A stretch of 59,431 nt of DNA, the filler included, from Streblomastix strix (Eukaryota): the NCBI GenBank assembly GCA_008636045.1. It is 3 parts of 3 records of this genome, joined end to end, with 100 filler letters (N's around TTAATTAATTAA, not from the genome) between each part and the next. Parts side by side here need not be neighbours in the genome. Positions count along the whole stretch, not along the records: positions 19,864 to 39,601 come from SNRW01000489.1; 2 more parts are not named here. One strand, written 5' to 3'. Made by a program: the position numbers and the translations under genes. The notes beneath the pieces are model-generated. The model had not been told where the DNA came from and did not search any database. It was given only the letters and a program-made list of their open reading frames with translations. This document shows positions 14,884 to 48,567 of the stretch, piece after piece. The stretch's first letter is position 1, and every line of letters starts with the position of its first letter.

Positions 14884-14890
14884 AATAAAA

Positions 14891-17863: not shown

Positions 17864-17928
17864 TTCATTGAAACAAAAATTAATGAACTGAATGAATGTT
17901 TATGTAAAAAGTTTTTATAATAAATCAA

Positions 17929-18135
17929 ATGGGTTTCTTCTCTGGAATAGCAAATATTGGGTCAAAAATATTAGGTGGCGTTAAGAAAGCAGCATAATTG
18001 GTTGCACCAGCATTACATAAAGTTATGTCTACAATATCAGGTCCTGTTAATATGATTCACCCCGCTATTGGAGGTGAACTAGGTGCAGGAGCTAATCTCG
18101 CAGGTGCTGTTGATAAATTAGTTAATAAACGATGA
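17929..18135 (+). CDS. Amphipathic 68-aa peptide, adenovirus protein VI-like (copy B)
   Basis: MGFFSGIANIGSKILGGVKKAAQLVAPALHKVMSTISGPVNMIHPAIGGELGAGANLAGAVDKLVNKR*. Head-to-head with the MCP; homolog at 35534. Confidence 0.75.
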
Positions 18136-18161
18136 TGACAGCGTAATTTATTTTTGAAGAA

Positions 18162-22800: not shown

Positions 22801-23675
22801 GAAAACGAGAAACCAAATGAATTCACATAAAAACAGAACATAAGGAAGAAGAGTGAATTCTAGTTTTAATAATGAAGTAATGCCAATATAACTCTCTGAA
22901 ACAAAAAATTAATGAATAATAAAAATGAAAATTTGATGAAAAAGAATTTTTATAATATTACAGTAACTTTGAAATTGAAGCACGTAAAAATTCTAATGTC
23001 AGCTCAGAAGATTCATAAGATCAAGATGAATAACTTTTAAGTATTCATTAGAATACAAATAAAAAATATAATTTGATAAAATTGAATCAAAATCAAATGA
23101 ATTAAATGAAATAATAGAAAAGTTTGATTGAATCAAATTCCAATCTTCAAAAATTTGAACAATCTGAAATTATAAATGTAGAAGAAATAAAAAATATCAG
23201 CATAACCAACTAAAATGAAATAAAACAAATGATTATAGAATAAGATGATAAATCTATTCAAGAAAAAATTGATCAAATATATGAAGTCTCCAATCAAAAT
23301 TATAATTGAAATGAATTAATTGAATTTATAGGAAATGATGAACAAATTAATAATTCAAATAGAATTATTATAAATATTAACAATAGGATGAAATATATAT
23401 TGGAACTGTTCACTAGAATCAAATAATATAATGAAATACATCCATAAACTTTATCTATTCTTTTAAATGAAAATATTAAAATCAATGATAATTAAAGTAT
23501 AAAATAAATACAAATTAATAAAAATCAAATAAATATTAAAAAATTCCATAATATTTAAAATAATAATAAATAAAAGTACAAAATAATATATATGGCCTGA
23601 ACCACAATGCACTAATTCTGCCGCACTATTTGTAACCATAATCTCTGCGCCAAATGACTTTTACAACTAAGGCTC

Positions 23676-23797
23676 TATTCATCAATGTAATACACAAATG
23701 ATATGGACAATTCTAAGCAAACACCTATGGTACAAATGACCGCAATTCATCAATGTGATGTGTAAACGATATGGACAATTCTAAGCAAACACCTATG
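23676..23797 (+). repeat. Two ~54-bp direct repeats (~68-bp period) downstream of pPolB fragment
   Basis: attcatcaatgt...gatatggacaattctaagcaaacacctatg x2. Confidence 0.85.
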
Positions 23798-23824
23798 ACA
23801 CATTCATCATCAAAAATCACAGCA

Positions 23825-26220
23825 TCATCGCTCTATTAAGTAATGATCTGCATTAATTCCATACATAAATGATGCACAACATCCGTTGGCTAATTCAACC
23901 ATTTTATCACCAATTCCTGTTAGCGCTGATTTTTCCATACTTATCATTGACATTACTCCCATTTTCATCTATAAATTATTAGTTGTAGCAATGATGTTAC
24001 ATCCATCACTCAAACATTTAATATAGTCATTAGTTGTTAAATTTGCCTTCTTCTCGCTAACTCTTTTCATCCTATTCACTAATGATACTATCTCTTCATT
24101 TTACTCATTTTCATTATATAGACTATAACATTTAGGTGTGAGACAAACGATATTTTCTCCTTATGGTTCAGTTGTGAGACCCATTAGTTTCTTCTCTTCA
24201 GCAACAGTACAATTGTCCCATGGAAGCCACTCTTTATAGTGTTAGTCATAGAACAGTTAGTCTTTAATCATATACTTCAGTCCATATTTATAGCCTTCAA
24301 TTTATGATCCCGCGATAGCTAAATACATTGAGTCAGTATCCATATTGCAGAAGTGAACTCTATCTATATCAATACATTTATAGAGGAAGTTGTATACAAA
24401 ATTTAGATATTAAAACTTGCTATTGTCCAGAGTGAAAACAGTTTCTTGAAGAGGCTTATTATATTAAAATTATCTAGGTGATTCTCTAACCATATATTAT
24501 GCTTCTTCAATAAGTTCACCATCAGAATTGTATTTATCATCACTTAATTTCCTTGTCGCCTTATGACACTAATTCAATTATTTGATTGAAGCATGTCGAG
24601 CATCATTAAAGGATATCCTATCAAACTTAGTATTATTTTATCCCTCAACTCCAAAAGCACTATTAAGAATCTATTTGTCGTATAACGCTTTTGTATCATT
24701 ATGTTGGCTATTTGCATCCTATCTCTTACTCATCATTTGCAGGCAAATGATTCAAATCCTAAGTGTTTATCACATATAGCAATTGAATCAATGTCATCAA
24801 TAATTAAATTACAATAGTCAATCAAAAACCATAAAATATGGCTAGTGAAGCACATAAATTGATTGTGTGTTGATAGCAATGATGTTAGTATTGTAGTTGA
24901 TTTGCCAACAGTAAGTCCCTGTGATTTCATCTTATTGTTCATAAATTCTCCAATCTATTCAATTGAATTATTATTTGTTAATTTCCTCCATATTGGTGCT
25001 AAATTTATGTGTGAAATAATATGTTTTTCATCAATTTGACCTTTAATTTTAACAAAGAATAGCTACCCTTTGTCATTAATTCGATCAGCACTCATAATCA
25101 TTTCTCGAGCTTTCCATTTCGAACTATTAGATGTATATTTGAAGTAGCAAGTTATTCCCCCTGCTTGTTATATTCGATGATTTGTATAAGGGTTATTTTT
25201 GTTGAAGATTCCACTAAATTCACTTGGATAGAGAGAGTTGAAATCTAAGTCATGGATGTAAGTAATTATATGTTAAGTTTCATATAATGTTATTGTTTTT
25301 GTAACATGATTATATTTAAGTTTGTTAATAGGTGTGATACCATTCAAATTACATTAATGATACACATTAGACAGTCCACCCTACATACATTCCTTTAACA
25401 TATTATATACAGATTCATTATTAATTGTCATAGGTAGATGTTCATAAATTGCACATTTCAATAATTGGATCTTTAATTTACTTATATCATTATCTTTGTC
25501 AGCCTTAACTGTATTACATATTTAACAAGCTAGTTAACAGTTCTATTTTGTATGACCAACTGAATTATCAATTCTATCTAATGTAGGCTTGTTTTCTTTA
25601 GTGAATTTGTTATGGCAGAGATGATATGTTTCACTAGATACTTTATCTTTAATCCAATCAATATCATCTTCTGTTACATTATTAGTTGTATCCCTCTTAG
25701 CATAGTCATCTTGATTAATATATCCTTTGACTTTGTTATTCCATCAGTATTAAGCAACTTCAAACTATTCAAAATCATTAACTATATTGTAACTTGCATT
25801 GATATTAAACTAATTATAACAATATTTGTATTTAATTTAACTTGCAATTTAAGCTAATGATTTACATCCCAACATATCAACTTTCTCTTCCCACGGAATC
25901 TGAATAAGATGATTGATTGGATTAATCATACAAGTAACATCCCTGATATTATAGTGCTTTAGATACTCCCATCTATTTTCAAAATTGATTGAACCATTAA
26001 TATATTGTTCATAATCTTCGTCACTTATATTCTTATTATTAAGTTTATCATGGAAATCTTCCTTAGTAAATGATTCTGATTATCCTAGTACTAATTAATA
26101 GTTATCATAATTGAATGATCCGTATGGAAAAGTACCCTTTGTTAATTTTATATCTTTAGTACCAAATTTCTCAACGAATTACTTTAATGTATTGTTTGGT
26201 GGAATGAATGATAATATATC
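23825..26220 (-). pseudogene. Protein-primed family B DNA polymerase (pPolB), 5'-truncated and decayed
   Basis: KGTFPY, ExoIII YLKHYNIRDV, HNH-like insert, motif A DFNSLYPS, motif B KQILNSAFG, motif C MDTDSMY. In-frame TGA at 25744-25746. Cut at 26220. Confidence 0.9.
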
Positions 26221-26632
26221 AGTAGAATAGTCCCGCGAATCTTGCGCTCAAAAGAGTTAAATTTATGGGTTAACTTATCCATTAAGGCCTCAAAAACGTG
26301 GTAAAACAAGGGAAAAGAACTGATTCCTGAATAATTATACCTTGTTTTGATTTATTTCGTGGGGATATATTATTTATTGAATATTTTTTTACATCATTTT
26401 CTACCATGATTGTTCAAACTTAACGTAAAATTAATGAAACACGGTATTTTATGGGGAGAAATGTATAATTGTCGCGATACCAAGCCGAGAAACGAATAAT
26501 GTGGGGACAAAGGTATAATTATTCAAGAATCAGTTCTTTTCCTTTGTTTTACCACGTTTTTGAGGCCATAATGGATAAGTTAACCTATTAATTTAACTCT
26601 TTTGAGCGCAATATTCGCGGGACTATACTACT
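26221..26632. mobile_element. 412-bp non-coding element with ~120-bp TIRs starting AGTAG (mini-Maverick/MITE-like)
   Basis: Left end agtagaatagtcccgcgaatcttgcgctcaaaagagttaaatt...; right end is its reverse complement (...cgcgggactatactact). No obvious TSD. Confidence 0.8.
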
Positions 26633-26672
26633 TTTTTTCCCTGTATAATAACTACCTGAAATTAACCTCTGA

Positions 26673-26859
26673 TCAAACTTTTAAATTTTTTGAAAAAATA
26701 AACAGAGGTGCAATCTGCCTTCTCGCCTTTGGCAGATTTCACTTTGTGAACTAGCTGACTGAAAGTTAGAGCTATAATTAACTGAAGATCAACCTCTTAA
26801 CTAATTTTGAAAAATAAAAAGTTGGTGCAATCTGCCTTTTATCTGGTTGAAAGTTAGCG
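26673..26859 (+). repeat. Element-C cis-motif, two tandem units (forward)
   Basis: tcaaac...ttttgaaaaa(a)taaa...ggtgcaatctgcctt...gaaagttag. Inverted partner at 32828-32966. Confidence 0.8.
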
Positions 26860-26998
26860 TGAAATCGAGCCAGCAAATTTGCAGGGTCAAACTTTACATA
26901 TCTTACTTCCACAGGCGTAATTTATAGCTGCCTCCTATATTGTTTTGAAGATTGAGTGCCAATTGATACCTAATTATTCCTCGATCAATTAAATTGTT

Positions 26999-29900
26999 TC
27001 ATTCATCGACATTTATTGTTGGCTAAAGATCTATATAATTTGTTGCGGATAGTTGATGTATGAATGGCGCAGCCAACTAGCTATTGGGTAATAATATCAT
27101 TTTAGTGTGTATACCAGTTAGGCCATTTTTATTTAGGGATAATTTTGACATAATTATATCTTTCTAACCTAAACGAGTATTTGTACACTTCATAATTTTT
27201 CCATCAATTGTATCTAATATATTTTATTTAGTTATCACATTTTATGATTAATTGATCCCTTTTAACTTAATTATTTCCTTCTTGGCGTTGATATAGTAGT
27301 TTTTTGGGGATAATGCTATCATCACATCACTTTTTTTTTCAGTCGCTAATTCTAATAACTTCTTTTATTCAGTTAGGTCATCAGTTGTTGGAAAATAATA
27401 TTTAGCGTTAGTATCATAAAATTATTGATCAGTAATTATGTGGTTAAATCCCTGATTAATCGGTTAATTAATGTTACCTGCAGCTGCGAAGTACATTGAA
27501 TCAGTATCTTCTTCAATAAAATGAAACCTATTTTTATCTAAGCACTTATACATAAAATTATATATGAAATTAAGATACCAATACTTTGCTTTATCTAATG
27601 TGAAATAAGCTTCCTATAATAGTGTTGTACATTTACATTTATCTGCATTTAATTATACTGCGTAAAGATTATCGTCCAATTAGCGTTCATTCATAAAATT
27701 ACCAGTCAAATGAGAAATAAATGTGTCCGCTTTTGATCTTAATTTTACATTACTAAACTTCTCAGTGTTCATCCCATCTGACCAATAACTAGCGTTCAAC
27801 ACTATTTTACAGAATTAATCCAATCCCTTATTATTAGATTTAATAGCATATATTCGCCTATTCATAAATGTGTTAACAAATGAATTAAATTTATCGTGTT
27901 TGGTAAATAAAATAAGTTAACTTATGTCATCAATTACAAAATTACATGTATCAATTAAGAACCATAAATAATAAGAACTGAAAGACATAAATTAATCGTG
28001 AGTGGATAATAAATTGGTTAATTTCCGTTCTTATTTACCTACGTTAATATTATTATTTTTCATAAAATTATAAGTATAACTTCCAATTGTTTACTCATTA
28101 GTAGTGTATGTTAAAATCCTCAGAATAGGTGGAAAGTTAATGTGTTGATTAATATCCTAAATATGGCCCTTTAATTGTAGCGATAAATAATTAGCCAGCT
28201 AAAGTATATCAAGTTGGAGAATTAATTATATTTAAACAACGTTATTTATTTTATTCATTATCATTAATCACTTCTTTAACTGTTCCTGACATAAATAATT
28301 TATGATTAGTGTACGTATTTAATGGGTGAAATTAACTGCTCATTAAAGAGGGATATAAAGAGTTGAAATCCAGTCCTATAATATTAGTAACAACATTATC
28401 TGTTTCAATTACTTTCACCTACTCCTCAAATACTAATTTTTTTTATTTTAGTTTAATTAGCAATATTTATTAGATTCATTACATTATTTAATCCACCTGT
28501 TATACCATCTCTTAAAGTTTAATATACTTATTATTTATTATTTGTTGTAGGTAAATTATATTTTTAACAATATTTTTTTAATTATATCAGTAGCTTCATT
28601 TCTTGATCGTTCCTATTACTTTTGACCTAGTTACAATATATGCAGCATTATCTAACATTATTCTTAGTGAGAGATAAGGAATTATTTATTCGATCTAATG
28701 TGGGCTTATTTTTAAATGTAAATTATGTTTAACAAATATAACAGGGCTATCTAAATAATTTTTGGAAGTAATCATAATCACTTTCATTCACATTATTGCC
28801 CACGGGTCGATGGGCAAATTTATCTTAGGAAATATACCCTTCTACTTTAGCTTTTCAATATTAAGGTGTAAGATAGAATGGTGGATCAAACGTATTGATA
28901 CTATAATCATCATCTAATTTAAATTCGTTATAGGCCATAGAAAATTTGACCGCATTAGCGCAACTGGTCATCGAGATAAATTAAAACATATTCATTTTAT
29001 ATTCAAAGAACAGATTAATTAAATTTTTTATTGTTTCAACCATTAACGAGGTATCTAATATATTATAATGTTTCAAATAATCTCACCTGTTATTGAATTA
29101 CTTATAATCTAATAAGTACTATTTATATTCTTTATCTGTTATAGAACTATTTTTCAACGTGTTGGCAAAATCAGATTAATTAATGGAGGTAGATTAAGAC
29201 AGCTATTTTTCATAGTCATCTCCCATTAGATCGTAAGGAAAGAGGCCCTTACTTTACTGTTAGTTTGAGAAGTTGATAACAAATTGATTCAATGTCATTG
29301 GTGGTGCTACATATAAGAATGCGTCTAAAAATTTAAGTTTAACCGATAAATTATTGTGTGAAATAATTAACTATTTACAGAATTAAGAAGTACCCAAATA
29401 GCTAGTTATTTTCCATTAACTTGAGGATAAATATGGAAATAATAAGGATATATCAAACTTAGCGGAATTATATCCGAGGATAGGAACTTCGATTGAATAG
29501 GCGGATAGTGTCATCATAATTGTTATCGTGTTTAATTTAAACTGCTTCTTTAAATATTTAACTTAACCATTAATTTACGAAGTTATCTTATCAATTATCG
29601 AAATAAATAGATTTAATACCCTTAGAGGAATAAATAGTGCTGGCAACTGATAAGGGGATTAATTTAGATATTAATTTACTATCTTTACCAAATTCAGTGA
29701 TTTCTTTTTATTCATATGTTTCGAAATCATAAGTTATAAAGTATTAAGTTGGCTTAAAGTCATGTTCTCTATTATTTGCGAGTAAATAGCGATAGGTCTT
29801 ATTTTACATAATATGTGGTACGAATGGACGTTGAATGTTATCCAACATTACTTATTTCTTAATTTAATCTTTACTTAATCTACACTTATCTATATGTTTA

Positions 29901-31276
29901 GCCATGTTCTCTTTAGTGCGTGAATCAACTTGAAAACAATGATTTTAGCAAATTGGGCAAAATAATAGTCCAGTTAAGCGTTCTTTATCTGTTACCAATA
30001 ATGTGTGGATATTGATACCATTTAATTCCTCAGATTAGATAAGTAATAAATTTATTTCGTTATCTCCTTCAAGCACCTCTGGTGCCGCCAACGAAGTTTG
30101 TTTCGGGAAAGATTAGGCCAAATAATAGCGAAAAGAACTGTCGTCCTATTCATAGGAAAATAAGTTAACAGATAAGTTTAAGTGTTTATGGATTAATTAT
30201 ATATCTGTTGCATAATTGAAGCCCTCGAATATTCTTGGGTTAAATTCCCCATAAAATAGATTCTTTATTTCCTTCATCTTTGCAAGTACTTATTTTTCAC
30301 TGTATCTTTTTTCCTTACTATCTTTCAACTAATATCTGGCAATTGATTCCAGTACACAGATATTAGGATAAGGTGAGTTAACATATCTGAAGCATTAGCG
30401 CTTCTTGGATAGATGTAGCTTGATACTCGGAATAGATTTACCACTGATTGGAAGTAGATATGTTATCGCGCACATTGTATAAATTGTAATATATTTCTCC
30501 TTTATATCAGTTAATATACGTTCTCGTATAGAGATAATTAGTGATTCAATATAATTTCTATATAGTTCAATATCTTATTAGTTACGTATTAATATTGGGG
30601 CTCTTCTTTCGGTCATTGATTTTCTAGGGATAATATATCCATAAGTAATCCGTTAGTCGTTATTTTTATCTCTATCTTTCCTTTCATATATGAATCCAAA
30701 ATCAATTGCTAACTTATATAGTTTATTTTTCATTGAAGTATGAATTGAGTCGAAGAAATCGTATATATTTAATACGTTGGATATTTAATTATTATAATGA
30801 GCTATTACTATTGGGTTTCGTTCAACATGGATCCAATCGTGATAATTAGATTTAGCATCATTGAGAACCTTATTGAATTCGTCTAGATCTGCGGGATGAG
30901 CTAACAATAGTACATCCTCATTAGCTAACTTTAATAATTTACGCTAACGTGTTGATTTAATTTGTTAATTAATTTCCTATAATTGGGATTAGAATATATA
31001 CTATAATTTTGGTTCTAATTACTACTTTATCTAGTTAAAGTCTATTTTTGTTTATATTGGTTAACGTTAATAAAATTAGTTATCTAATCTAGTGTCAAGG
31101 TCAGATAAAAATTAAGTTAGAACATCATAATTATTCCTTGTTCCTTTGCGTGGAAAATTATTTTTATCAAGTACTTTCTTTAATTATTACTTCAATAATT
31201 AATATGCTTTGCTATTTTTCAATTGTGGGGATATAATATGTAGTAAATTTAATAATTAACCTTTTGATAATACCAT
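26999..31276 (-). pseudogene. Full-length Polinton-type pPolB (~1425 codons) with putative terminal protein/vOTU, Zn finger, exonuclease, HNH-like insert and polymerase; frameshifted
   Basis: NICVLESIAR/IHTLL, CPIC...H...C, ExoI ITYDFET, ExoII GYNSAKFD, KGLFPY, ExoIII YLKHYNILDT, motif A GLDFNSLYPS, motif B KIVLNASY, motif C EDTDSMY. Confidence 0.9.
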
Positions 31277-31378
31277 TTATAGTAATATAAAAATAATTTT
31301 TATTTTATCTAGATAAGTTAAAGTTAAATTAATAGGGTACGCTCTTTTCGGAGCTAGCTGTGGTGGTTAATTTCACCA

Positions 31379-32080
31379 TCACCCTTAGATCAATAATCCA
31401 GCGAAGTTAAGTATCTAATTTTAACCCATATATATTTCTTTTTATATGAAAACATGTATTTCTTAGATATCACAAACATTTATCAAAAATAATAATTTTA
31501 ATAAAATAAGACCAACAAATCTTTTGAACTTGGTATAACAAATTTAATGACGTTAGCCATTAGTATCCTTAGCGTAAACAAAGTGAAAACCGCCTTTTGA
31601 TTAATTAATATGTAATTATTTAAATTTTAGCCCATTAAATAAATAGAAAATATCGTTATGAAAGTACAAATTCTCAAATTCCCAATTACCATACTCATTA
31701 TTCACTATGCTCCCGTCATCAATATGGTCAAGATACACTTATTCAATATTATCTCGATGTTACTCTCTATTTAAACTATTTTAGCTAGGTGTAGCCTATC
31801 TAAGATTAGCTAAGGAATTATCTGTTCTGATCTATGATCTATGATCGACCTGAATTTTATATTCATGGTCATCGTTAGGAATGAATTATAGCGCAACTAA
31901 TCGATGTAATCCATATGTACGATTATTTAATGTAGTTCTCATATATCCATTAGGAGTTTGACTAATAGTTGGTTCAAACCTGTCAGCTATTCGTCTAATA
32001 CGCAATGATTGTGTGGTAGTTATCTCGAACTCAGGTTCAACATCAAGTTGGACAAATTATTATTGGGTATTATCAGTCAT
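31379..32080 (-). CDS. HNH homing-type endonuclease (NUMOD4/HNH_3-like); 3' end uncertain
   Basis: GYMRTTLNNRTYGLHRLVALQFIPNDDHEYKIQVDHRSQIRTDNSLANLRQATPSQN. Confidence 0.85.
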
Positions 32081-32122
32081 TTAACTAGTGGATAAAAAAA
32101 TAAAAAAATAAAAAAATAATTT

Positions 32123-32791
32123 TCAATTATTAAATTATTTAATTAATGTTTCGATGTACATTTTAAATTCAAACTTATTATTATCATACACTTGAACATA
32201 TTAGTTTCGTTTCCCATTATCATTTATTTTTAGCTACATATAAGTATCATTATCGAGATTATTATTCCAAATATTCTATGTTTCATCTAATACGTAGTAA
32301 TCACCTAATATTCTATTTTTATAATCAACCAAATCGGTTAAATTTTTATCTTTCATTTCTTCTTTAGATCTTATTTAATAACTCTTATTTGTATTATATC
32401 GATTATAGTCAAATTAATCCACCCATAATAAGTTATCAACTGCGTCATTCTCCAGATCGTTATCTAAGTGGAATATTTTATTTTTATTAATATCTTAATT
32501 TGGTATAAATTATTTAGCTACGAGATAACTGAAGGACAGATCACAACGTTTGCCGTTGATATCGTTCAATCTAATTTATCTACCTATAAGTCCACCGCTT
32601 TTACTTTTCTTTGATTAGGAATTAATTTCCCTATCTAGCTTTGTATTCCAAACTATTAATTAATCGTTAATCAGATATCTGGGGTAATCTATTATTGATT
32701 CATAACCTTAACGTTATTTTTCATAGCTAATTCTGTTCATCTTATCTTATGTTGATTCCTTATCTGTTATATATTTATCAAGGAATGTCAT
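32123..32791 (-). CDS. Divergent HNH-like paralog (222 aa)
   Basis: YLVAKQFIPNQDINKNKIFHLDNDLENDAVDNLLWV. HNH_3-type pattern, but the catalytic residues look eroded. Confidence 0.65.
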
Positions 32792-32827
32792 TTGTTTTCC
32801 AGATAAAAAAATAAAAATAAAAATAAA

Positions 32828-32966
32828 AAAGGTGAATTGCACCGCTGTTATTTTTTTCAAAATTATTTTAAGTTTGGGTGGAGGTCTAATTTTAGCTCTA
32901 ACTTTCTGTCAGCTAGAAGGCAGATTGCACCTCTGTTTATTTTTTCAAAAAATTTAAAAGTTTGAC
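32828..32966 (-). repeat. Element-C cis-motif, two tandem units (reverse)
   Basis: Reverse complement reads tcaaacttttaaatttttgaaaaaataaacagaggtgcaatctgccttctagctgacagaaagttagagct..., near-identical to 26673-26772. Confidence 0.85.
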
Positions 32967-33042
32967 CTGACATTAATTACCACGTTAATTCAAGTGCTAA
33001 TCATGGTTAAATTTCCATACTAACTTTTTTTATCATATATAA

Positions 33043-33330
33043 ATGTCTGGTTCATGTTGCTCCTATAACGAATATTCCCTAAATTTTAATGTAATAGGAA
33101 ATTTAAGTTACGATAGAGGAGATCTAATACCTTATTACGGTCAATCAGTATCAATATTAACACCTTAATAATATAAATAGTTCAAAATAATATTCGATAA
33201 TATTATAGAAACAAGTGAAAAATAACGATAAGATTACAATAATAATAGACTAAGGAGAATAGCTGATTATCATCGCTAATGCTTCGATGAATGTGTATTT
33301 TAAATAGAATAACGAAATAAATTACTTTGA
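33043..33330 (+). CDS. Viral hypothetical protein (95 aa)
   Basis: MSGSCCSYNEYSLNFNVIGNLSYDRGDLIPYYGQ...*. Open under TAR=Gln; lies between two cis-motif copies. Confidence 0.5.
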
Positions 33331-33474
33331 TTATTATTTTTGACTGCCTAAATTTTGGCACTCAACTTGTTGGAATGAATCTTCGACTCACTCGATTTTT
33401 ACCAACCAAAATTGGTTCCTTAATGTTAGGGACTAAAAATAGCCCCGAATTAGTGCTTAAATTAACGTTCGGCT

Positions 33475-33541
33475 AAACTTAAAATAATTTTTAAATTTAT
33501 TTCGTTGGTGCGATTCACCTTTTATCTGACTTAGAATTAGC
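33475..33541 (+). repeat. Element-C cis-motif, single unit (forward)
   Basis: aaacttaaaataatttttaaatttatttcgttggtgcgattcaccttttatctgac. Inverted partner at 38690-38750. Confidence 0.75.
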
Positions 33542-33557
33542 CTAATAATTAATGTTA

Positions 33558-35500
33558 TCAACCTGCCACAATCATACTACCACCAATCTCTCCAATTACC
33601 TCTAAATTTAATATTTATGGTTCAGGGGCATCATCGAACATTATTCTAATAATTGAATCACACAAGAAGTGAACCAGTGGTGTCTACGCAATCTATGTTG
33701 AAATAGGGTAGCTTCTAGTTCCAATAAATCCAGTGAAATTATTTTAATTCTCTGTAGTGGCGGGATCAGTATCGAGAACCTTAAAATTATCTATAATTCC
33801 ATTTGCAATATTATTATGGAGTATCACTTGTATATTAGTTCTAGCACCTATCTTCGTACTATTACAGCCTCTCATGAACGAGTCATCAGTAGCTAATTTC
33901 CATGCTAGCATAAATTTATTCGGATAATACGTTTTTATAGCTTTAAATCCCCTGAATAGTGTCGTATTAAAGAATACGTTATCTTATTATTCTGCGGGCT
34001 CATCATCTTTTCCGTATTAGTAATTTTTATCATTTATATTAATGTTTTCGAAAGTAAGTGAACGATAATGATCTGATGGCGCTGATACAATATCCTAGTA
34101 AACAAAACATTAAAATTCGAACCATTAACATCAGCAGTTAGTGCTTCATATGGATTAGGTGTCGCATGTTTTTGGTCAATTATTAAATCAATCTTCTTCA
34201 TTAGTAGTGGGAAGAACCATGTTGGATATTATTACATAGCGAATGTCATAAATACACTTTTTATATTAGAGAATGACATTATAGTTTTCATTTAAGTTCC
34301 TGACATAGGATAATTGGTTGATTGGGTCTTTAATACTTAAGTTTGAAAGTGGATTATTTTTTACGCTCTAATCATATCTATAATCGCCATTTCGTTCTCC
34401 ATAATGAAACACAAATTATGTATAGATAAATTATCAAAATAAGCCGTATCTATTTATTTTATACTATTTTAGGGGTAAGTATCAGCATTACCTAGATCTC
34501 TACAATTAATCAATCGAACAGTATAGTATTCACTTGCAGGTGGATCACTATCATCTAGTAAAGTAAAAATATCTGGTTTCACCGCTGGTATCATTGCGTA
34601 AGCTAAACAAGTATCAAATGATCTGAATTTATTTAACCAAACTACTTTCAAATCTTATAGGAAATCAGTCATCCATAGTTACAAATATAATGAAGCATAG
34701 TTTCTAGTTAGTACAGGAAATTCATTAAATATCGGGTTAAGTTAATTTAAGTCCATTACCCCAGAGAAAGTAATATCCTTGGGATAGCGATAGAAATAAG
34801 CAGTGGTAGTAGAAGCAGCAGCAACTTCGACTAACGGTAAATCGAGAAACACACCGTAATGGCGTTTGCCCTAAAATATACTTTCTAATGGTGAAACAGT
34901 AACGCTATTATTAACGGTTAGGTCAGATAGTGAATTGGAACGTATTATAGCCTGTTCTCTAGCGTAAATAGATGTTTCCCATAATTTAGTGTTATCTCTA
35001 CATATAGCTATTTATTAGAACGGTCCACATGCTATTGAAAATCCTAACCAAAATTTTAGTACTTCACCAATATTAAACTTTTATGTTGTTTATTTTATAT
35101 CTGCTGCTAGTGCAGTTGTTGCTGTCTTAGTTCCAATAAAGTTTGTTCTAGATCTGGCAAATTCTATGTTAATTAACAAATCTTTTGTCGTGTTTACTCT
35201 ATTTAATTATATTCCTATAGTGTTAGCTGGTATAGTAATTATCCAATTAACTTAGCAAGCCTAAATACAACAACAAGTTGCACTTCCTCTAGCCCCTAAT
35301 TGAGCACGAGTTTATCTAGTACCACCTAAAGTTAAAGTATTTCTTGGTTTGTCAAAAAATTCCTATTTGGATAATGTAAGTGATTAAGTTTCAATAGTCA
35401 AAGTTCTTAACACTTCATTTAGTGCAGAGTGTGATGAAACATAATCAGAATGTGATGCTTTCGATAAACGAACTAAATAATCTGACGCGTTGAATGACAT
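33558..35500 (-). pseudogene. Putative major capsid protein (copy C; one 1-nt deletion near 34112)
   Basis: MSFNASDYLVRLSKASHSDYVSS... ~648 aa; homologous to copies A and B; in the same element as pPolB and ATPase. Confidence 0.6.
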
Positions 35501-35533
35501 TTATTGATTGAACTAAATTTTAAACTAATATAA

Positions 35534-35737
35534 ATGGTATTTTGGTCAGGTCTCAAGAATTTCGGCTCAAAAATATTAGGCGGCGTAACATCAGTGGCTA
35601 TATGGGTAGTTCCTGTTCTTCATAAAGTTATGGGTGCTGTTTCAGGGCCATTAGGTGCAATTAATCCGACTGCTGGTATGATATCCAAAGGAGTAGGTAG
35701 TGCAGCAGGAATGGCAAATAAATTCCTTAATCGATAA
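35534..35737 (+). CDS. Amphipathic 67-aa peptide, adenovirus protein VI-like (copy C)
   Basis: MVFWSGLKNFGSKILGGVTSVAIWVVPVLHKVMGAVSGPLG...NKFLNR. The homologous stop position has TAA where copy B has TGA. Confidence 0.75.
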   Translation: MVFWSGLKNFGSKILGGVTSVAIWVVPVLHKVMGAVSGPLGAINPTAGMISKGVGSAAGMANKFLNR

Positions 35738-35771
35738 AACATTAATACACGAATTATTTTTATATTTAAAT

Positions 35772-35969
35772 ATGGTAGTTAATAAGAACTTTGGTTTAAA
35801 AATATTAAATGGAGTCAAATAAGCAACAGGATATGTTCATAATACTTTAGCCAAATTGCTAGCTTCAACATAGATGAGAAGTGACGCTGTTATTATAAAA
35901 CCAACTCATATCTAACCTAAACCAATTGATTATGTACACTAATCGAAAAAATTAATTTAAGGTTAGTGA
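35772..35969 (+). CDS. Tandem paralog of the pVI-like peptide (65 aa)
   Basis: MVVNKNFGLKILNGVKQATGYVHNTLAKLLAST...*. Shares KNFGxKILxGV with the upstream gene. Confidence 0.55.
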
Positions 35970-35988
35970 AAACATAAATTTAAGCCGC

Positions 35989-36634
35989 TAGCATTTATGT
36001 CACTAACATAGTTGGTAATGTAGTTAATTTTTTCTCTAATTAAATGGAATCATTAATAATATAATTGAAATAATTAATCAAACAATTATCCAAAAATAAT
36101 ACTCTTTAGAGCGGCAACATAGTTGCTATATAAGAAGATCTAATATCTGAAATAATTTAATAGTTAAAGGACTTAATGTAGCCCTAATTAGATTAACCAT
36201 TATTGTCCTAAGAGTTGAAAAAAATTTAATAACAATTTGATCACCAATAATAAAAATTATCATTTTTTAATAAGTATGCAGAACAAGAGTAGTACCTTAA
36301 TAAAATTTACGCTTAAAATAATCACAAATGTATTGATTAATATAATTAGTATAAATAATTAAGTAGTACTCAAGCTGAAAAACTTAAACGTTATATATTA
36401 ACAGAGGCAAATGATGAGGAAAAATAAATATACAATAATTTTGTATCTGATGTTGGAATTTAATAGTTCAATAATTATTACTCGTTAAATTAAATCTGAT
36501 TAACTCAATTATTTTATGCTATTATCGAAAGGTAATTAATATAATTTATCATTTCCTAACACTTATTTCCAATATATTCCCCTTCATCCTCTATGTTTGC
36601 TTAAGTAGCATTTATGTCGCCAACAGAGTTGGTA
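35989..36634 (+). repeat. 29-bp direct repeats (35989-36017, 36606-36634) flanking one ORF
   Basis: tagcatttatgtc(a/g)c(t/c)aaca(t/g)agttggta x2. Confidence 0.75.
36044..36499 (+). CDS. Viral hypothetical Gln-rich helical protein (151 aa)
   Basis: MESLIIQLKQLIKQLSKNNTLQSGNIVAIQEDLISEII...*. Open under TAR=Gln. Confidence 0.5.
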
Positions 36635-36779
36635 CTTATTTTTTCACTTTCCTCACATTTAATAGGTTCAATTAGAGCTTAATAAATATAATATATCTCA
36701 GTATTGTTCGCGTTAATCTTTTACCCAAGTTTGATCGCTACTTATAACAACTAATCCATATTTAATCATAATTAATTTT

Positions 36780-38572
36780 TCATAATACTCGACCGTTGAA
36801 TGTTAATGTGTTTCCATCAGCGGATATTCGTAATCCTCTATCGGTTGCAACATCACTTGCTTGCATAATAGCGAATTAATTTGTATTTCCCATATGACCA
36901 ATAATCCATTATCCTTCTACTGTTCCACTAGTTTATTATGGATCAGCTCCCACTGTCACAAAACTCCATTAATTACTCGTTGATTTACTTATTCGTATTC
37001 CTTCACTAATGTTTGAAGTATTTGGATTTACCTAAAATGCACCATTAAATATTTTTGTACGATTAATTGTTAATTCAGTTCCAACATTAACCAATTCATT
37101 ACCATTAAATTTTATTATTGAACTATCACTATTAATATTTAGGCCAACACTATGGTCAGCATAACGTTGAGATGATGGGTTAATTGTCAATGCTCTATCA
37201 CTTGTTTTACTTATTTCCTATTAACCTAATTGAGTAGTATTTATAGCTGTAGTTGAACAACCTAAATATGATGATGAGTATTCTGTGTTATAGTTTCCAA
37301 TTCTAATACCATTATTAAATATAGTATAAGTTCTACCTGTTGGATTAACTTATAACATATTACTTATTATTCCACCATTACCTAAATCATAAGTAATTGG
37401 TATTTGTGTACCATTTGATACTTCTGAGACTACATCTTATGTTAATATTTCTATTATTCTATTGGTATAATAAGTGCTTTAATCTGATATCACTATCGTA
37501 ATGTTACCAGCTGATTCTAATCTAACATATGCCGAATAAATTGAAAAAGTATTTGATCAAGAATGATTGTGAAATAATTAATTTACACCATTATCAATAT
37601 CATAGTATGAACTAACTTTAATTGGAGCTGTAAATATTCCATATACAGTATTGATTCCATTAACGGTATAATAACGCACTAACCTAATGGTTTGAACAGC
37701 ATTGTAAGATGAATATAATTTAAATTCAATGAATGAATTATCATTACTAGCCCCAGCAGGAAATATACATAATCTAATCCATCCACCTGCACTAGCGTTA
37801 TATATTCTTGATAATTTACTATCTATAGTAGTTGTATCTCCATTCGCTAATAGTATTTATTGATTTGTTCCACCAATATTAATAAATTTAGTAGCTGTTA
37901 CATCCCCATTCTATGTTAATTATTGGGATGGATATGATCTCCTCTACTATACGATGTACTAATTCCAGCACTAGCTTCTCCATCAACTATAGGCGATTCA
38001 TCACTAGCGGGTGTAACTTAATCAGGAACTAATTGGCCACTATCATTCCAATTTGATTCATACATCCAAACCGTATGACATTCTGCAGAGAAGGCAAAAT
38101 CACCTGTAACGCTAGAGGTTAGATTAGTTATATCTGCGTTAAGTAAATAATATCCTCTAAAATGTGTTTATCGATCTAACTCCTGCTAAATTAATGTAAT
38201 TGATTAATTTATATTATTAATATCCGAAGACTATTGTTTATATTCTTATTGCTGTTAATTTATCTATTATTATATTTAAACTATTTATTATATAAAATCT
38301 AAATTTAACACTTATAAATCCTTAATTATTAATTTACCTTCAGTATTTATTTTTAAAGCAAAATTGCTAGCTTGCCCATCAGATATATATTATTTATCGG
38401 TATAAACAAACACGGATTAATTATCTATGAATAGTTAGTAGTTTTCATCTTGTATTACAACTGAATTATTACTTTTATTTTTCACATACTACAAGTAATA
38501 TTATATCTATATCGAAATTAATTAACTAATAATAGATCTTTATTAATTGGTGAGAACTTATATCTATTACAT
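36780..38572 (-). pseudogene. Long fibre protein (copy C; frameshifts and an in-frame TGA)
   Basis: N-terminal half homologous to the 18162 gene (QTHFRGYYLLN...PDQVTPA; one DHxHP repeat). Different distal part with two GIRI...FN modules. Confidence 0.75.
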
Positions 38573-38689
38573 TTAAGTGTACAAAAATAAATACAGTTAA
38601 TGTTGGGCTAAAGAGGGGGTCCTGCCTAATTTGGGCTATACAAATGTTAACCGCGAACTTTTGCGACTAGTTCTTTACATTAATTATTT

Positions 38690-38810
38690 ATGTCAGATAA
38701 AAAGTAAATTGCACCAACGAAATAAGTTTAAAAAATAGTTTAAGTTTGACTTTTGGGCTAATTCAAGGGCTTATTCAAGGGCCAATTTATTGGGCTAATC
38801 ATAGGCTAAT
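38690..38810 (-). repeat. Element-C cis-motif, single unit (reverse), plus short gggctaat-like repeats
   Basis: Reverse complement: tcaaacttaaactattttttaaacttatttcgttggtgcaatttactttttatctgac. Confidence 0.75.
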
Positions 38811-38972
38811 TTATTACGCTAGCCATGGATAATTATTCAGTTGCTTCAAATATAACTAATATCTATATTCTTTAGCTAATTTTATATCATCATTTTTGAT
38901 TGCCTCCTTAATTAATTATTCCAATTATTCGGTGGTAAATTATTTAAGTATTGATTCGTTAATTGTTTTCAT
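38799..38972 (-). CDS. Small viral hypothetical protein (57 aa)
   Basis: MKTINESILKQFTTEQLEQLIKEAIKNDDIKLAKEYRYQ...*. Confidence 0.4.
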
Positions 38973-39184
38973 CTTCTTTCTACGATAGCAAAATTAAATT
39001 ATATATACAATTATATTAACAGGAACTAATATTATATCTAGATACCTCCATAATTATTTAATCAGTGAAATATATTTGATTGGTACATTAACTGAGGTAA
39101 TCGATACTATAAAATTAATCCCATAAAATAAGTAATTTAAAACTAATTATATTATGCCGATCGTATTCATTTATATTTACTTAT

Positions 39185-39490
39185 ATGAGTTCCTAATAAA
39201 TAAATTAAATATCGTTCGACGACCAATCACTATAAAAGGAATATAAATTTAGGCCATTAGCCCCACATTCAATCTTTCTCATTAACGCCAACCATTATAT
39301 AGTTGGATCGGTTGGAAGTGATAAAACAACTTTAATGGCGAAATTGATAGTATTATATTAACGATACATTAATCCCTACATATTATACTTCTCTAACTTT
39401 GGACCAGATGAAACAATGGTCATTAATTTAAATAATAAAGGGATTAAATTAATTAATATAACTTACTCAGATGCAAGTAGTTATGAGAAT
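39185..39490 (+). pseudogene. N-terminal fragment of A32/FtsK-like genome-packaging ATPase
   Basis: MSSQQ...NHYIVGSVGSDKTTLMAKLI: Walker A (GxxGxGKT) with G>D, near the N-terminus. Breaks into AT-rich sequence. Confidence 0.6.
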
Positions 39491-39601
39491 ATGGAGAGTG
39501 CCCCACATAGAAAAATAAAATAAATAATGTTAAATAAAATAATGATTATAAAATAATGAAAATAAATAATAATAATAAATAATGATAATAAAATAATGTA
39601 A

Positions 39602-39701: not shown

Positions 39702-39702
39702 A

Positions 39703-40482
39703 GAAACTGAATTAAAAGAATTAGAAGATGACAATAATTAAGATAAAAGTAATGAAGCATTTGAAGAGTAAAACAGAAATAATGAAGAATACGATTAAGA
39801 AGAAGAGGAAACAAACCATTAATAATAAATAGGAGAAGATGCTATTAGTTAAAACAGCCAAAAAAATAAATAAGAATCTTTGATTAGTGGAGAATAAGAA
39901 GAATAAGAAGAAGGAGATATGGAAGTGGGATAAGAAGATGGTGATTTAACAGGTAGTCAAATACAATAAATGGATTAAGATGCGGAAATTGAATAAGATT
40001 AATAGGATGAAACACTCTAGAGCTCACATAAATATTCGAAATCAAATAATAACTTAGATAGTGAAGAATATTAAAGTAATGATGAAAAAGATGGTGATGA
40101 AGAAGAATAAGAAGAATAAGAAACATATGAAGGAGATGATACAATTAACATAAATGAAAAGTATTAGTAAAATCAAAAGTAGGAAAAAAGAATTAATATT
40201 AGAAGAGAAGATTCAGATCAAGAATTTAATGATGATGATTTAAAGGACGAATAATTAAGTAATATAAAGAGCTAATATAATAGAACTGAAAGTGTAGCAT
40301 TTAATGATTATGATTTTGAAGAAGAGGGAGACGTGGATGAAAGATAATATGAAGAGAGCGAAGACAAGACGCATACTCCAGCTAAAAGAAGCTCTGAATA
40401 TGAGCGAAATAGTCAATAGAATGAAAGTCTAGACAGTCCAGAATTTGATGATGACAACGAGTTCTTTGACGATGATATGTGA
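39703..40482 (+). CDS. Acidic low-complexity C-terminus of a host protein (5'-truncated by gap)
   Basis: 260 codons open under TAR=Gln, D/E/N/Q-rich, ends DDDNEFFDDDM*. Confidence 0.65.
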
Positions 40483-40798
40483 TGATTGTAAGAAGAACAA
40501 TTAATTCTCTTATTTGATTAATTATTTAACTAGTCATTTTTTTTACTAATAAACTTTTGTTATATAACCAAATCAAGAAATATTGTAAAGAAAAAGCTTA
40601 GATTATCAACGTATCTATTTAATTTATTTTCGAATGAAATATTAGTTTACTATCAATAAGAGTGTAGGAAATCCTCTAAAAATTTAAATAATTAATAAAT
40701 ATTATTATATGTTGTTATTAATAACAAAATTAGTTGAAGTATATGAATAGCATTGGCATTATTCAATATTCATGTTTTTATTATATTTAACATTTTCT

Positions 40799-43700
40799 TC
40801 ACTTTTTTTCTGCAACCTGTTACCTCTTCTCTAAATCTTCCTTGAATTATTTGACAAGCTCAGATTTCTTTTGATTTTCCCTCTGTTCGTAAAGCTTTAG
40901 CTATTCATTGTAGTATTGCTTCAATCTCTCCTCTCTTTCATGTTATTTCAGCAATACGAGTGTTTCGCGTTTGGTGATCTGAAAAAAAATAATGTTAATA
41001 TATAATAATTTATTATTTAAAATTGTGTTATTATATAAATTAATTGAATACCTCATCTCTGCGCATCAAATCCTTAACATCTTGTGGTACAGAGGAGACA
41101 ATGATTGAAATGAGTGCTGCAGCCAAAATGAGAACATTCTCCACACCGAAGAAGATGATGACTGATACCATCTATCCTGTTGAAGTTAGTTCTTAATCTC
41201 CAATAAACAAAGTTGTGAGTTAAGAGCGGAAACAGAAGAACATAATTCCTAAGTTCATAATAACTGCAGCATAAGTCATGAAGTTTAGCACAGGTAGGAA
41301 GGACCCTATACTTGCACTGGATATTGGTATGGGGCGTTGCATAGAGAAGCAGATCTTCGCTGGATCTGATCGGAGCTGAATAACATTTCCTACAAATGAA
41401 AAGAGTGCAGCCAATGGGAAGGCTGGTGCAAAGAGTGTGATGAATCCGAATTGCATTACTAATTCCTAAAAGTCATCAAATGTATCATATTCTCCCATTC
41501 CCATTTCAACTTCTGTTTTTGTAGGAAGACTTGCCATCTCCTTTTCAATTTAGAGAAGTTCAATTTTCTGTTATCTTAGTTTCTCAAGCTGTGCGGGTGA
41601 GATTGTTCGAATGCGCTTCTTCTTCCTCTGAGTTTATTAACCATTATTCTGATTTGCATTTTATTAATTTTCTGCAGTTTAATTCTTTTTCTATTATCTA
41701 CCTCTTACTCCTCCTTCAGTTGGTGGCGCATATGCATTTGCATTCTGATTAGCTTCTCTCTGGAGTTGAGCTTCATGCTCTTGATTCTCTTTAAGTTATG
41801 TGACCATGGCTCTCACTTCTTCTTTCTTTTTACGAATGCTTCTTTTCTTCATTTCTGTTAAGGACCATTTCAAAAACACTATAGCCATTGGCAGTATGTT
41901 TGAGAGAACTTGAGTCTTGAGGAAGTAGATTATGAACATGGTTATCAAACGAGTCCTCAAATCACTGAATGATTCACTGACATCATCATTGAATGGATTA
42001 TGGGAGAATACAATATAGACCATAGAGAAGAATTGGTTAATTACTGCAGCTGATACCATTCTGAAAATGATCATGTTATCATATTAACTCTAAGTTTTGT
42101 AGTTCTCCCATTTGTTACAGGCAGTTGCAACAAAGCTGTAGATGAATCCAAAAATGATAGATACTACAGCATTCAATATGGAAGGAATAAGATCTATAAT
42201 AAATTCTACTACAAAATGTAAGTCTGTACGACCACCTTTTATTGCATCAATGATGGGATTTTCATAATAGGTCAGGAGAAAGATGACTACAATATCAATT
42301 ATAACCATGATCAATGAAATAGGGATGGTTATCATATACTTTTACATTCTCTTACTCGAAGGATATTCTCGCTCCAATTTTCCAGTAATCTTCGATCTCT
42401 CAATCTTCCCATCAAATTTTGGACGCGGTTTTTCTATTTCTGAAAAGTTGAATGTGTTCCATGAATAAGTTTTCCTTGCTTCATTACGCTTCCATGCTTT
42501 TGTGAATATTGCAGACCAAATACAAACAATAATAGAGAATATTGATCCAGAAAGAGCCATTGCTTAATCACCAGATAATATTTCCTGTACAATGAAAACA
42601 ATTATTCCAATAATCGTAAGAGGAATGAGCCATTTCGTGTAGAATCCAAGATAGACAAAGTAAAGAGCGACCTTCTCTCCAAAGTATTGTGCAATCATAT
42701 TTGATGGTTGTTTCTTTAAAGACCAGATCCAACGCTTCTTAAGAGCTTCCAATTAATCTTCCTCATGAACTGGGAAGAAAGCTTTGCAATATCCCATAGC
42801 CAGAGCTCGCATAATCAACATGTCTCCATATCGTATGCTTCCAACAACGTCTTCTTCTTCAACCATAATATCAGTAAGAATATCATAGATGAGCTTCTTC
42901 CTCTCAGCTGAATAGAAGAAGGTCTCTGGTTCATCAATACCCAGAAATTCACCTCTCTATGAACTAACAAAATCCACCATATCACTTCCACCATCAACTT
43001 TAACATTCTCAGGTTTCAATAACTTCTTGAAATGCTTCAACTCGGCTTAGATGCAAAGAGCTTCAAAAGTTGCACTGATGTTGACAAAGATCAATTTCTG
43101 ATCTGTGCTGACTTTCTCTTCCAAAAGAAGCTCCCTCTCTCTCATTCGCCTCATTATAAGATCTTTGACTACTACTTTTTCACGATCACTAATTCCTTTG
43201 ATCATCTTAAGAAGTCCACAACATCTCGTGTCTTCATCATCTTCCTCAATAATCTGGATACCTAAATTATCATCTGGATCATCTTCTACACTTTTATCCT
43301 TTGGATCTTCGTTTTCAAACTACAATTCTCCATTTTCATCAACTTTCCCATCTTTTGACACTTTTAATTTACGATATATTGGATTCTTTTGTTTTTGCTG
43401 AGCTTTTTACTTCTTCAGGCGATTCCTCTTTAGAATATGATCTTCAATGACATCATCATCACCAGCAATACCCAATTTTTAATTCATCCTCAATGTAGTA
43501 AGTGTCCCATCATCAAATTCTTTATTATTAATACGTTTCTATTTATATTCTTCAATCTTCCTCATCCGTAATCTCTCCTGATAATCTTCACGCTTCCTTG
43601 CTTCTCTTTCCATCCTAGCCTTCCTCAAAGCAAGATCATCTTTCATACTCTTCATTCCTTTCTCTGAAGCATCTTCAGGCGACACAAGATTCTCAAAAAC

Positions 43701-44663
43701 AAGCACAAAGTCGGTGATCAATATTTTCTCCTTATGTTCCTTCATCGCAGCAAGGAGATCCTTCATCTCTAATTTCTGACGCATCTTCCCTGACCCATCA
43801 TCTACCAATGCATTTCTTCTCCTTTAATGAGCGCGCCAACATCCTTATTTGAATAATTAATAAAGAAATGATTGAAATAATTATATATATAATCAAATTA
43901 TATTAAAAGTTATTCATTAAGTTTATTTTTTCAATACTTTGAATGATCATTACAGCGTGAACTTAAGCTGTAATTTTCCTGAAGGCATCTCCCCAAATTT
44001 TTCTTACAGAATAACCTCTAAATTAAATAATATATTAATTAAACACATGAAAAATAATATTTATTTAAATTAAAATTACCTGTATGTTTTTTGAATTTTT
44101 ATTGCTGCTTCATTTTCTTTTCGTGTTTTTTCATCATACATATTAGGTGAAGTTATCGGAGATTACTAAAAAACGGAGAAAATATTAACGATAAATATTA
44201 ATAAAGCAAACTGGTAATTAGACAGAACATGCAGCACTTAGCTATTTGAGCCATTGAGTATATTAGTCCTTGGGTTTGATCTTGTGCATCTTGCGCCCAA
44301 TAACCAGCGAAATGGTCTTGTCATCATCTTCTTCAACGACATTCTGTACATCCATTAGATAAATATCTTTGACAATATCCTAAGAAAGCGAAAATAAGTA
44401 TGAAATATTGAATAAGAAAATAAGATTAAGTCATACAGTAGCACTTTCATCCTTATAATGGATCAGTCTATTGTCCTTGATGACTGTCCAAGTTTTTTAT
44501 TCAGAAAACAGTTTTCCAGTTGTAATTATATAAACAAAGCCCTTTAAAACGATTGCGAATGAGTAAATCGATTGCGAATGAGTAAAAACGATTGCGAATG
44601 ATTAAAAATAAAAATATAGTAATACAGAAGCGTGCATACACTAATCTTAGCTTACTACGTCAT
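40799..44663 (-). CDS. Anoctamin/TMEM16 protein with N-terminal PH domain and two IQ motifs (host, multi-exon)
   Basis: IAQYFGEKVALYFVYLGFYT, WENYKT, FDDFQELVMQFGFITLFAPAFPLAAL, MQRP...SIG. N-terminal PH-like exons and IQ motif AAIKIQKTYRGYSVRK. Confidence 0.9.
44548..44603 (+). repeat. Three tandem 19-20-bp repeats in the first intron of the anoctamin gene
   Basis: cgattgcgaatga(g/t)taaa x3. Confidence 0.85.
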
Positions 44664-45229
44664 TAAAACGGTGATCTATATTATAAAAATATAAAATATA
44701 TATTAATATAAAAATATTATTTAGGGATATAAAGAAAAATTGAGTTTTTAAGTTTTTCACAATTTCTTGGCTCAAATTGTATGAAAATTATTTTCTGTAA
44801 ATTTATATATATTATGTAATTATATCTGCATCAAACTAAAGTACAATTAATATATATATAGACGTTTCTGATTTTCGTCTCCATAGGCCTATTATTTATG
44901 TAGTGCTGGAAATGTTAACTGAAATCCTCGGAGAAAAACGAACGTTTTCTACGACGTGGAAGGCATAATAGCAAAGACGTTGAGTTAAATGTTGATCACT
45001 GTACAATAAATTATAAAAATAACACCATCGCACAACTGATCTAATTTTACTGTCGGCTTTTAAAATGCTGTCGACTTTTAAACAAGCCATATATGCCAAA
45101 GCTTTCTTTGGAAAAAAATTTTATTCAATTTTATTACTATATTATTTTGGAACAAACAAAGTGTGTCTTTTCGATTATTTTAATTTATAAATTAATAAAT
45201 TTTAAAAACAATTCGTTTTTAGTAATGAA

Positions 45230-48500: not shown

Positions 48501-48567
48501 AAAAAATTGTTTAATTTATTAAATTTGACCAATATATTATATTATTACTATTGATAATAATGAATAA

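Follow-up and report, generated by a model that had tools for sequence, protein, structure and literature searches.

The window analysed here is a stretch of 59,431 nucleotides from Streblomastix strix, a protist of the termite gut using genetic code 6, in which three contigs are joined with N-spacers (positions 1-19763, 19864-39601 and 39702-59431). The second contig carries a Maverick-like element that is truncated by the contig end just past a putative ATPase fragment. The element is decayed, with at least three frameshifts in its protein-primed family B polymerase (pPolB) gene and one in its major capsid protein (MCP) gene. The surrounding region is itself a nest of decayed elements. Six copies of a repeat unit, here c1 to c6, are set among the following features:

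23586..26220, minus strand: remnant of an older, different pPolB, whose homology breaks off at the AGTAG end
26221..26632: fold-back unit, its arms 123 bp long (94%) and its ends 5'-AGTAG...ACTACT-3'
26660-26776 and 26777-26864, plus strand: repeat units c1 and c2, c1 with a 29-bp insertion
26890..27006, minus strand: conserved ORF of about 38 codons within the polymerase block; homologues lie at the MCP 3' end in both contig-1 elements
26999..31276, minus strand: broken pPolB gene; Trichomonas vaginalis relatives at 44-47%
31379..32791, minus strand: two HNH endonuclease genes (Pfam E 9e-8; PHROG E 2e-7)
32891-32800 and 32978-32891, minus strand: repeat units c3 and c4
33043..33330, plus strand: conserved spacer ORF of 95 codons between the blocks; homologues P0242 and P0244 are 71-76% identical with the same start Met
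33460-33547, plus strand: repeat unit c5, with extended flank 33409-33571
33558..35500, minus strand: MCP gene; homologues are named major capsid protein
35534..35737, plus strand: small pVI-like ORF, with a homologue in contig 1
36044..38680: uncharacterised ORF (plus strand) and pieces of a putative fibre-like gene (minus strand)
38763-38686, minus strand: repeat unit c6, with extended flank 38661-38812
39185..39559, plus strand: putative packaging-ATPase N-terminal fragment, entering low-complexity DNA near the contig end

An earlier note on this DNA had described tandem repeat pairs enclosing pPolB and two HNH genes, and homology bears out all three gene calls. Homologues of the polymerase carry PF03175, giving the element the protein-primed family B polymerase expected of a Maverick or Polinton; a PDB sequence search with a polymerase fragment returned no informative match. 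Of the capsid-block contents proposed in the same note, the MCP is supported, its ESM features matching double-jelly-roll capsid clusters at 0.96; its structure model is of low confidence (pLDDT 40) and gave no Foldseek match. The pVI-like assignment is reduced to a weak match to adenovirus pre-protein VI (E 2.9), and the fibre-like gene drew no significant informative family match in Pfam, PHROG and NCBIfam-type searches. The ORF at 39185 does indeed lie past the last copy, outside both inverted-repeat pairs, but its identity as an ATPase amounts to a Walker-A-like stretch (E 0.13) with no significant family match, a single unrelated NCBIfam match falling far under the cut-off. Neither an rve integrase nor a cysteine protease was detected among the 48 ORFs scanned; the element runs off the contig end, beyond which the right terminus and any integrase would fall. 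Pfam/PHROG-type family searches of ORFs found no integrase or transposase in either block, and the element as present on the contig revealed no recombinase for block inversion or exchange.

All six motif copies occupy the positions and orientations originally described; the unit itself, put at about 70 bp, is in fact about 88 bp long (period 88 at 32800-32990), the left pair having a period of 116 owing to the insertion in c1. A profile made from the six copies found no seventh in the window, and there were no matches in viral contigs. Six matches in metagenome contigs and two in prokaryote genomes were taken as chance, as none came with a match to the window ORFs. The copies are intergenic and set in alternating orientation, two of the six containing a small GGTG-N5-CACC dyad, and they place the pPolB/HNH block (6.3 kb) and the capsid block (5.3 kb) each within an inward-pointing pair, the arrangement of invertible segments of the herpesvirus type. 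Around the polymerase block, the extended inverted repeat (26660-26840/32827-32978) has 126 of 151 aligned bases identical and a local score of 131; around the capsid block (33409-33571/38661-38812), the values are 113 of 149 and 105. Both pairs are far above chance, for which 2000 random window pairs gave a median score of 27 and a maximum of 64. Within the 64-nt core, c1 and c4 are identical at 60 of 64 positions though 6 kb apart, against 49 for the neighbours c1 and c2, which suggests exchange between paired arms. For the capsid-block pair c5-c6 the count is 49, no better than that for c1-c2 and much like the 48 for c3-c5.

The spacer between the blocks is multi-copy family DNA, covered by many diverged contigs from two samples (X1, X2 and X3). 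Two long candidate homologues of its ORF were discarded: P0241 is a bacterial-type repeat protein, and neither it nor P0243 maps to the window. To the left, homology to the older polymerase stops at 26223, against 26221 for the AGTAG end. The end motif of this fold-back unit fits the Maverick (AGT)2//(ACT)2 type, its partner end is not within the contig, and no TSD was found at it. The unit is likely to be where the element truly ends on its left, or else a mini-Maverick beside it; it could be a separate mini-element. A second AGTAG-type unit, unrelated to the first, occurs at 4076-4322.

Block order elsewhere in the family was read from one of 235 MCP gene models examined and from read contigs, of which X1, X3 and X4 represent one sample, possibly the window's own source, and X2 a second. 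Gene model P0019, on a 23,316-bp contig, joins MCP to HNH2 to HNH1, which is the order of the window. Read contigs keep this order where a reverse repeat meets the spacer (X1 record 1, X3 record 17) and where the spacer meets the MCP end (33429 to 33558 and 33260 to 33570). Other joints depart from it. Tandem arrays vary, with longer ones in read contigs (26860 to 26660). The HNH genes are missing in some members (skip joints 31355 to 32888 and 31354 to 32909), and the fibre-like gene and c6 are skipped where the capsid side is joined to the ATPase (36128 to 38963/38968). A capsid-type end occurs upstream of the spacer ORF (38775 to 33225, sides 37/49; 33027 with 33436, side 95), and in the second sample a c1-type unit follows that ORF (loose end of X2 at 33368). 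Reading the 38775-to-33225 joint as a circle is ambiguous because the same X3 contig also aligns to c3. One deep contig (X1 depth 905, X3 8.15) shows the polymerase in opposite orientation, running from pol 5' end through reverse repeat to AGTAG arm. This contig is from a diverged subfamily and may represent a lineage difference and not active flipping. Were the polymerase block flipped, its 38-codon ORF and the MCP end would converge, which is the arrangement seen in both contig-1 elements.

These joints come from 15 of 345 in the first contig comparison and 15 of 22 in the second, and they rest on 20-95 letters at 80% likeness, such as other repeats can also yield. Because a repeat type does not belong to any one position, repeat-only joints cannot prove block swaps, and single contigs or reads cover parts of blocks, none a whole block, with inversion inferred piecewise and not end-to-end. 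Longer fused MCP models numbered 0 of 7995 candidates, which is weak evidence, and related loci sought through MCP or polymerase gave nothing usable, two weak loci having no match to window ORFs. Judged from such sequences, the layout is nevertheless not fixed, given variable arrays, HNH-less forms, capsid-to-ATPase joins and one flipped polymerase.

The element is most likely one single integrated Maverick-like virus genome. We propose, with a probability of roughly 0.55, that the six copies are repeats dispersed within this genome that bracket its blocks and let each flip or be swapped by recombination. Mirror-image copies would recombine, whereupon the polymerase block or the capsid block inverts or is exchanged. 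Inversion, and conversion of sequence from one paired arm to the other, may come about through homologous recombination, or when single strands displaced during pPolB replication fold back, and neither inversion nor conversion would need a dedicated recombinase. The ~88-bp unit would be a putative cis-acting protein-binding site, origin- or enhancer-like, and position 26221 the probable true left terminus of an element inserted into the older polymerase gene. The suggestion of invertible or exchangeable cassettes gains some support from the flipped contig and from differing repeat types and neighbours at junctions, within the limits of joints of that length and likeness. The pattern that the earlier note had set against its own proposal is present in part: the order does recur, and copies adjoin the starts and stops of genes, yet departures from that order occur.

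A possible though rather unlikely alternative is that the genome has a fixed order, the repeat being a duplicated transcription or origin signal whose inward pattern follows gene orientation, with no flipping within a lineage. Baculovirus hr sequences are repeat origins and enhancers of this sort, and the variable tandem arrays recall them. The window's order does recur; c3 ends about 10 nt ahead of the HNH2 start, in HNH-less read contigs c4 is upstream of the pol start by about 90 nt, c6 is upstream of the fibre-like gene, and c2 and c5 adjoin stop codons. However, one and the same unit points into genes at two sites but lies against gene 3' ends at two others, the closeness of c1 to c4 over that of c1 to c2 suggests paired-arm exchange, and the polymerase is reversed beside the AGTAG arm in one contig.

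Independent virus segments ending at the repeats, as the earlier note had entertained, are unlikely on four counts. The block ends have neither the AGTAGT motif, absent from all repeat copies, nor TSDs (a search within 40 bp gave only short matches at offset positions). An end of the AGTAG type is found 440 bp outside c1, exactly at the cut in the older polymerase gene. The spacer is conserved DNA present in many copies, and it has an ORF of its own. Finally, another gene model and read contigs repeat the order of the blocks. The specific form of a multipartite virus akin to Bidnaviridae, with tandemly integrated polymerase and capsid segments that each replicate from repeat ends of their own, is improbable. 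In Bidnaviridae too, as described in the available part of the source, TIR-bounded units of ~6 kb carry the pPolB and capsid genes, the blocks of 6.3 and 5.3 kb resembling segments of 6.5 and 6 kb, but theirs are free segments of ssDNA, packed separately in capsids of the parvovirus type (PMC4061559), whereas the blocks here are linked through conserved element DNA. Each block does have an extended inverted repeat, the 38775-to-33225 joint could come from a capsid block that is circular or repeated head-to-tail, and MCP and pol match lists compared by eye share no contig of equal size, a comparison of low power since the window's own polymerase is absent from the list. Yet no sharp common terminus was found, the outer ends running on into more repeat units or conserved spacer; the junctions recur in diverged copies, and the ATPase-like gene stands outside both pairs.

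Separate mobile elements sharing ends and inserted side by side, namely a pPolB unit resembling a transpoviron and a satellite with the capsid block alone, are still less probable. Repeat-bracketed replicases have been read as mobilised units (bioRxiv 10.64898/2026.10.13.758929), and a nest of decayed elements would suit such insertions, but no integrase, transposase or TSD was found for either block, the junctions recur across copies, and the polymerase block contains an ORF otherwise belonging to capsid gene clusters. An amplification or assembly artefact is scarcely credible: the assembly derives from single-cell work according to its reference title, and fold-back chimeras are common in amplified DNA, but the arms are 75-93% alike where an artefact would make them identical, and diverged contigs, among them some of the second sample, show the junctions again.

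Returning to the reading of dispersed recombining repeats, it is tempting to speculate that the virus isomerises and reassorts by design, with shared recombination sites, herpes-like inversion isomers and a capsid block releasable as a ~5.5-kb molecule, a prospect we hold to be doubtful. Herpesvirus repeats are kilobases long and near-identical, and their isomers are demonstrated, whereas in the studied element we infer them only. Herpesvirus genomes contain internal inverted repeats (PMC13030472, available part). Their unique blocks are each flanked by such repeats, which make isomers possible; the likeness is functional only, these viruses being unrelated.

Canonical Mavericks share with the element pPolB, MCP, modular gene order and, at its probable left terminus, an (AGT)2//(ACT)2-type end, but have one TIR pair and a 6-bp TSD, internal repeats going unmentioned in the available text, which does report that the relative orientation of the two modules varies between species (PMC8097293). 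Close counterparts are the Metamonada Maverick-Polintons and PLVs, for which 820 MCP genes are listed from S. strix (Bellas et al. 2023, PMC10120064). These have the same host, code 6, a pPolB related to that of T. vaginalis Mavericks and a divergent capsid protein, but the accessible portions of the two sources describe no internal repeat architecture such as the element possesses (PMC10120064; bioRxiv 10.64898/2026.06.19.733378). Five MCP accessions were not among the supplement rows listed, and the element's MCP family may not be the one catalogued there (PMC10120064). In Polisuviricotina, replication genes are bracketed by repeats distinct from the TIRs, frequently with endonuclease genes nearby; in the part of that study available, these cases concern multi-replicase genomes and replication machinery only (bioRxiv 10.64898/2026.10.13.758929). 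The studied element differs in having one repeat family, in inverted pairs, around polymerase and capsid blocks both. Hence repeat-bracketed replication modules are already known in Polinton-like viruses, and for bracketing of both modules our literature searches, which saw some sources in part, found no description.

The virus group to which the element belongs is not placeable in current classifications. Replication and capsid modules reassort across lineages of small eukaryotic DNA viruses by a mechanism that the consulted part of one study calls unresolved (bioRxiv 10.64898/2026.10.13.758929). A family with hundreds of genomic copies and one repeat around both modules would make such a mechanism directly testable by long reads. 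Should the virus isomerise and reassort in this way, module swapping in Polisuviricotina would have a physical mechanism, and the virus would be an intermediate on the way to bipartite pPolB viruses.

The element on the middle contig is organized around six copies of a repeat unit, laid out as follows:

26660-26776, +, repeat copy c1
26777-26864, +, repeat copy c2
26890-27006, -, 38-codon ORF
Between c2 and c3, polymerase block: pPolB, HNH1 and HNH2
32891-32800, -, repeat copy c3
32978-32891, -, repeat copy c4
33043-33330, +, 95-codon ORF in the spacer between the blocks
33460-33547, +, repeat copy c5
Between c5 and c6, capsid block: MCP, pVI-like and fibre-like genes
38763-38686, -, repeat copy c6
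Beyond c6, putative ATPase fragment

Our analysis confirmed the places and orientations of the six copies as reported in the earlier note; the feature is real, and the unit is about 88 bp long. The interpretation that the note attached to it is supported in part only. A profile search of the window found no seventh copy, including around the two capsid gene sets of contig 1. Paired block ends align over 126 of 151 bases (polymerase block) and 113 of 149 bases (capsid block), with scores of 131 and 105, whereas 2000 random pairs reached 64 at most; ends of different blocks score 75 and 61. Copies c1 and c4 are identical at 60 of 64 positions, every other pair at 40-49.

We favor, at a probability of roughly 0.55, a single Maverick-like genome partitioned by scattered arrays of a cis-acting unit whose orientation alternates. 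Recombination between inverted arms would invert a block and keep paired arms alike, as would displaced strands folding back during protein-primed replication, for which adenovirus provides a precedent; between copies of like orientation, recombination would delete a block or excise it. No recombinase was found in the element within the window. In C. elegans, Polinton TIRs are reported as likely mediators of inversions in the host's DNA (bioRxiv 10.1101/2024.01.15.575659).

The layout is not fixed. Among the read-contig joints listed (15 of 345 in one set, 15 of 22 in the other), forms without the HNH genes have the repeat some 90 nt upstream of where the polymerase starts, one joint runs from the capsid side straight to that of the ATPase, skipping the fibre gene and c6, and capsid-type ends are found upstream of the spacer ORF. 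The second sample has a c1-type unit after this ORF (a 20-letter loose end). One deep contig runs from the polymerase 5' end through a reverse repeat into an AGTAG arm, a mirror image of the left end seen in the window, with a reversed polymerase; it belongs to a diverged subfamily. The pieces behind these joints measure 20-95 letters with 80% likeness, none of the records covers a whole block, and contig sets X1, X3 and X4 derive from one sample, which may be the window's own source. The suggestion of invertible or exchangeable cassettes has some support; the joints document rearranged relatives rather than ongoing flipping. A purely regulatory or origin function for the repeat is a less likely alternative. 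Several variant contigs in X1 have depths near 450-550 or 900-1650 versus 6-8 for locus-specific ones (23270-39600; runs X1 and X3), depth being no copy number; a small number of very abundant or extrachromosomal variants may lie behind this, or else amplification bias.

The six copies are probably not termini. Mavericks most commonly end in 5'-(AGT)2//(ACT)2-3' with a 6-bp TSD (PMC8097293), and neither a Maverick-type end motif nor a flanking duplication was found at the six copies, whose outer sides often run on as more units in read contigs (joints stepping back about one unit; X1, X2 and X3). A segmented virus whose segments carry their own ends, with bidnaviruses as precedent (PMC4061559), is unlikely. 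An AGTAG end lies at 26221, 440 bp left of the repeats, and it is exactly here, at 26223, that an older polymerase remnant loses its homology; we read this end as the element's left terminus. The end belongs to a 412-bp fold-back with 123-bp arms (26221-26632) that may instead be a separate mini-element, because a 247-bp fold-back of unrelated sequence at 4076-4322 has perfect Maverick-type AGTAGT...ACTACT ends and neither unit has a TSD. Together they may represent a mini-Maverick family.

The 480-bp spacer does not come from the host. Many diverged contigs cover it in both samples, its ORF has two homologues starting at the same methionine, and read contigs join it to the reverse repeat (X1 record 1, X3 record 17) and to the MCP end. 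A mis-spliced gene model from a contig of 23,316 bp has MCP, HNH2 and HNH1 in the same order and on the same strand as in the window; it alone is informative on block order among 235 models (120, plus 49 proteins, 18 of them MCP and the others counted in, plus 66). Two other models show differing local gene orders. Adjacent independent elements are improbable, and an artefact is scarcely credible. A 39-bp inverted similarity (85%) relates the spacer ORF (33216-33252) to the 5' part of HNH2 (32685-32723).

The polymerase and both HNH genes were confirmed. The MCP identity is backed by homologue names and language-model features, with no support from the predicted fold (model and structure comparison); the pVI, fibre and ATPase labels are weak. 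Since polymerase and MCP are both frameshifted, this copy is decayed. Small ORFs divergent from the MCP gene lie at 35534-35737 and 17896-18132; the sole PDB match of the former is adenovirus pre-protein VI, over an N-terminal amphipathic stretch (E 2.9). The 38-codon ORF, next after the polymerase here, terminates 2 of 120 polymerase models. In both elements of contig 1 it lies at the 3' end of the MCP, and the 'replication block' is thus not exclusively replicative.

The window (three contigs of about 19.7 kb with N-spacers) is AT-rich, with frames open under genetic code 6 only; Bellas et al. (PMC10120064) report that S. strix elements use the host code and list 820 MCP genes. All of the best 120 of 209 capsid homologues are named Streblomastix strix. 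Our MCP family (33558-35500, 646 aa) looks unlike the 562-aa S. strix MCP of Bellas Table S3 at its N-terminus, and five MCP accessions were not found among the supplement rows listed; this may be a second capsid family, as yet uncatalogued. Contig 3 holds a host anoctamin gene (40938-43784), a TCP-1/cpn60 fragment (49269-50066) and coding tandem repeats of 66/132-bp period (53705-55308). A further dispersed family in both orientations (50092-50242, 52748-52879, 57947-58097, 3800-3838) probably represents transposon ends.

Repeats distinct from TIRs bracket replication genes in multi-replicase Polisuviricotina genomes (bioRxiv 10.64898/2026.10.13.758929), and PLV end modules are flanked by repeats (PMC11296320; general background in PMC6431247). 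One repeat family bracketing both modules was not described in the literature searched, mostly outside subscription journals; metamonad elements are still without placement (bioRxiv 10.64898/2026.06.19.733378). The two contig-1 capsid gene sets (1-3426 and 12989-19763) are inverted, differ in gene order and lack the 88-bp repeats. There, a structural-type gene lies with the 38-codon ORF between two direct copies (91%) of another repeat, 58 bp long (14826-14883 and 15821-15878). Each subfamily may carry its own intergenic repeat.
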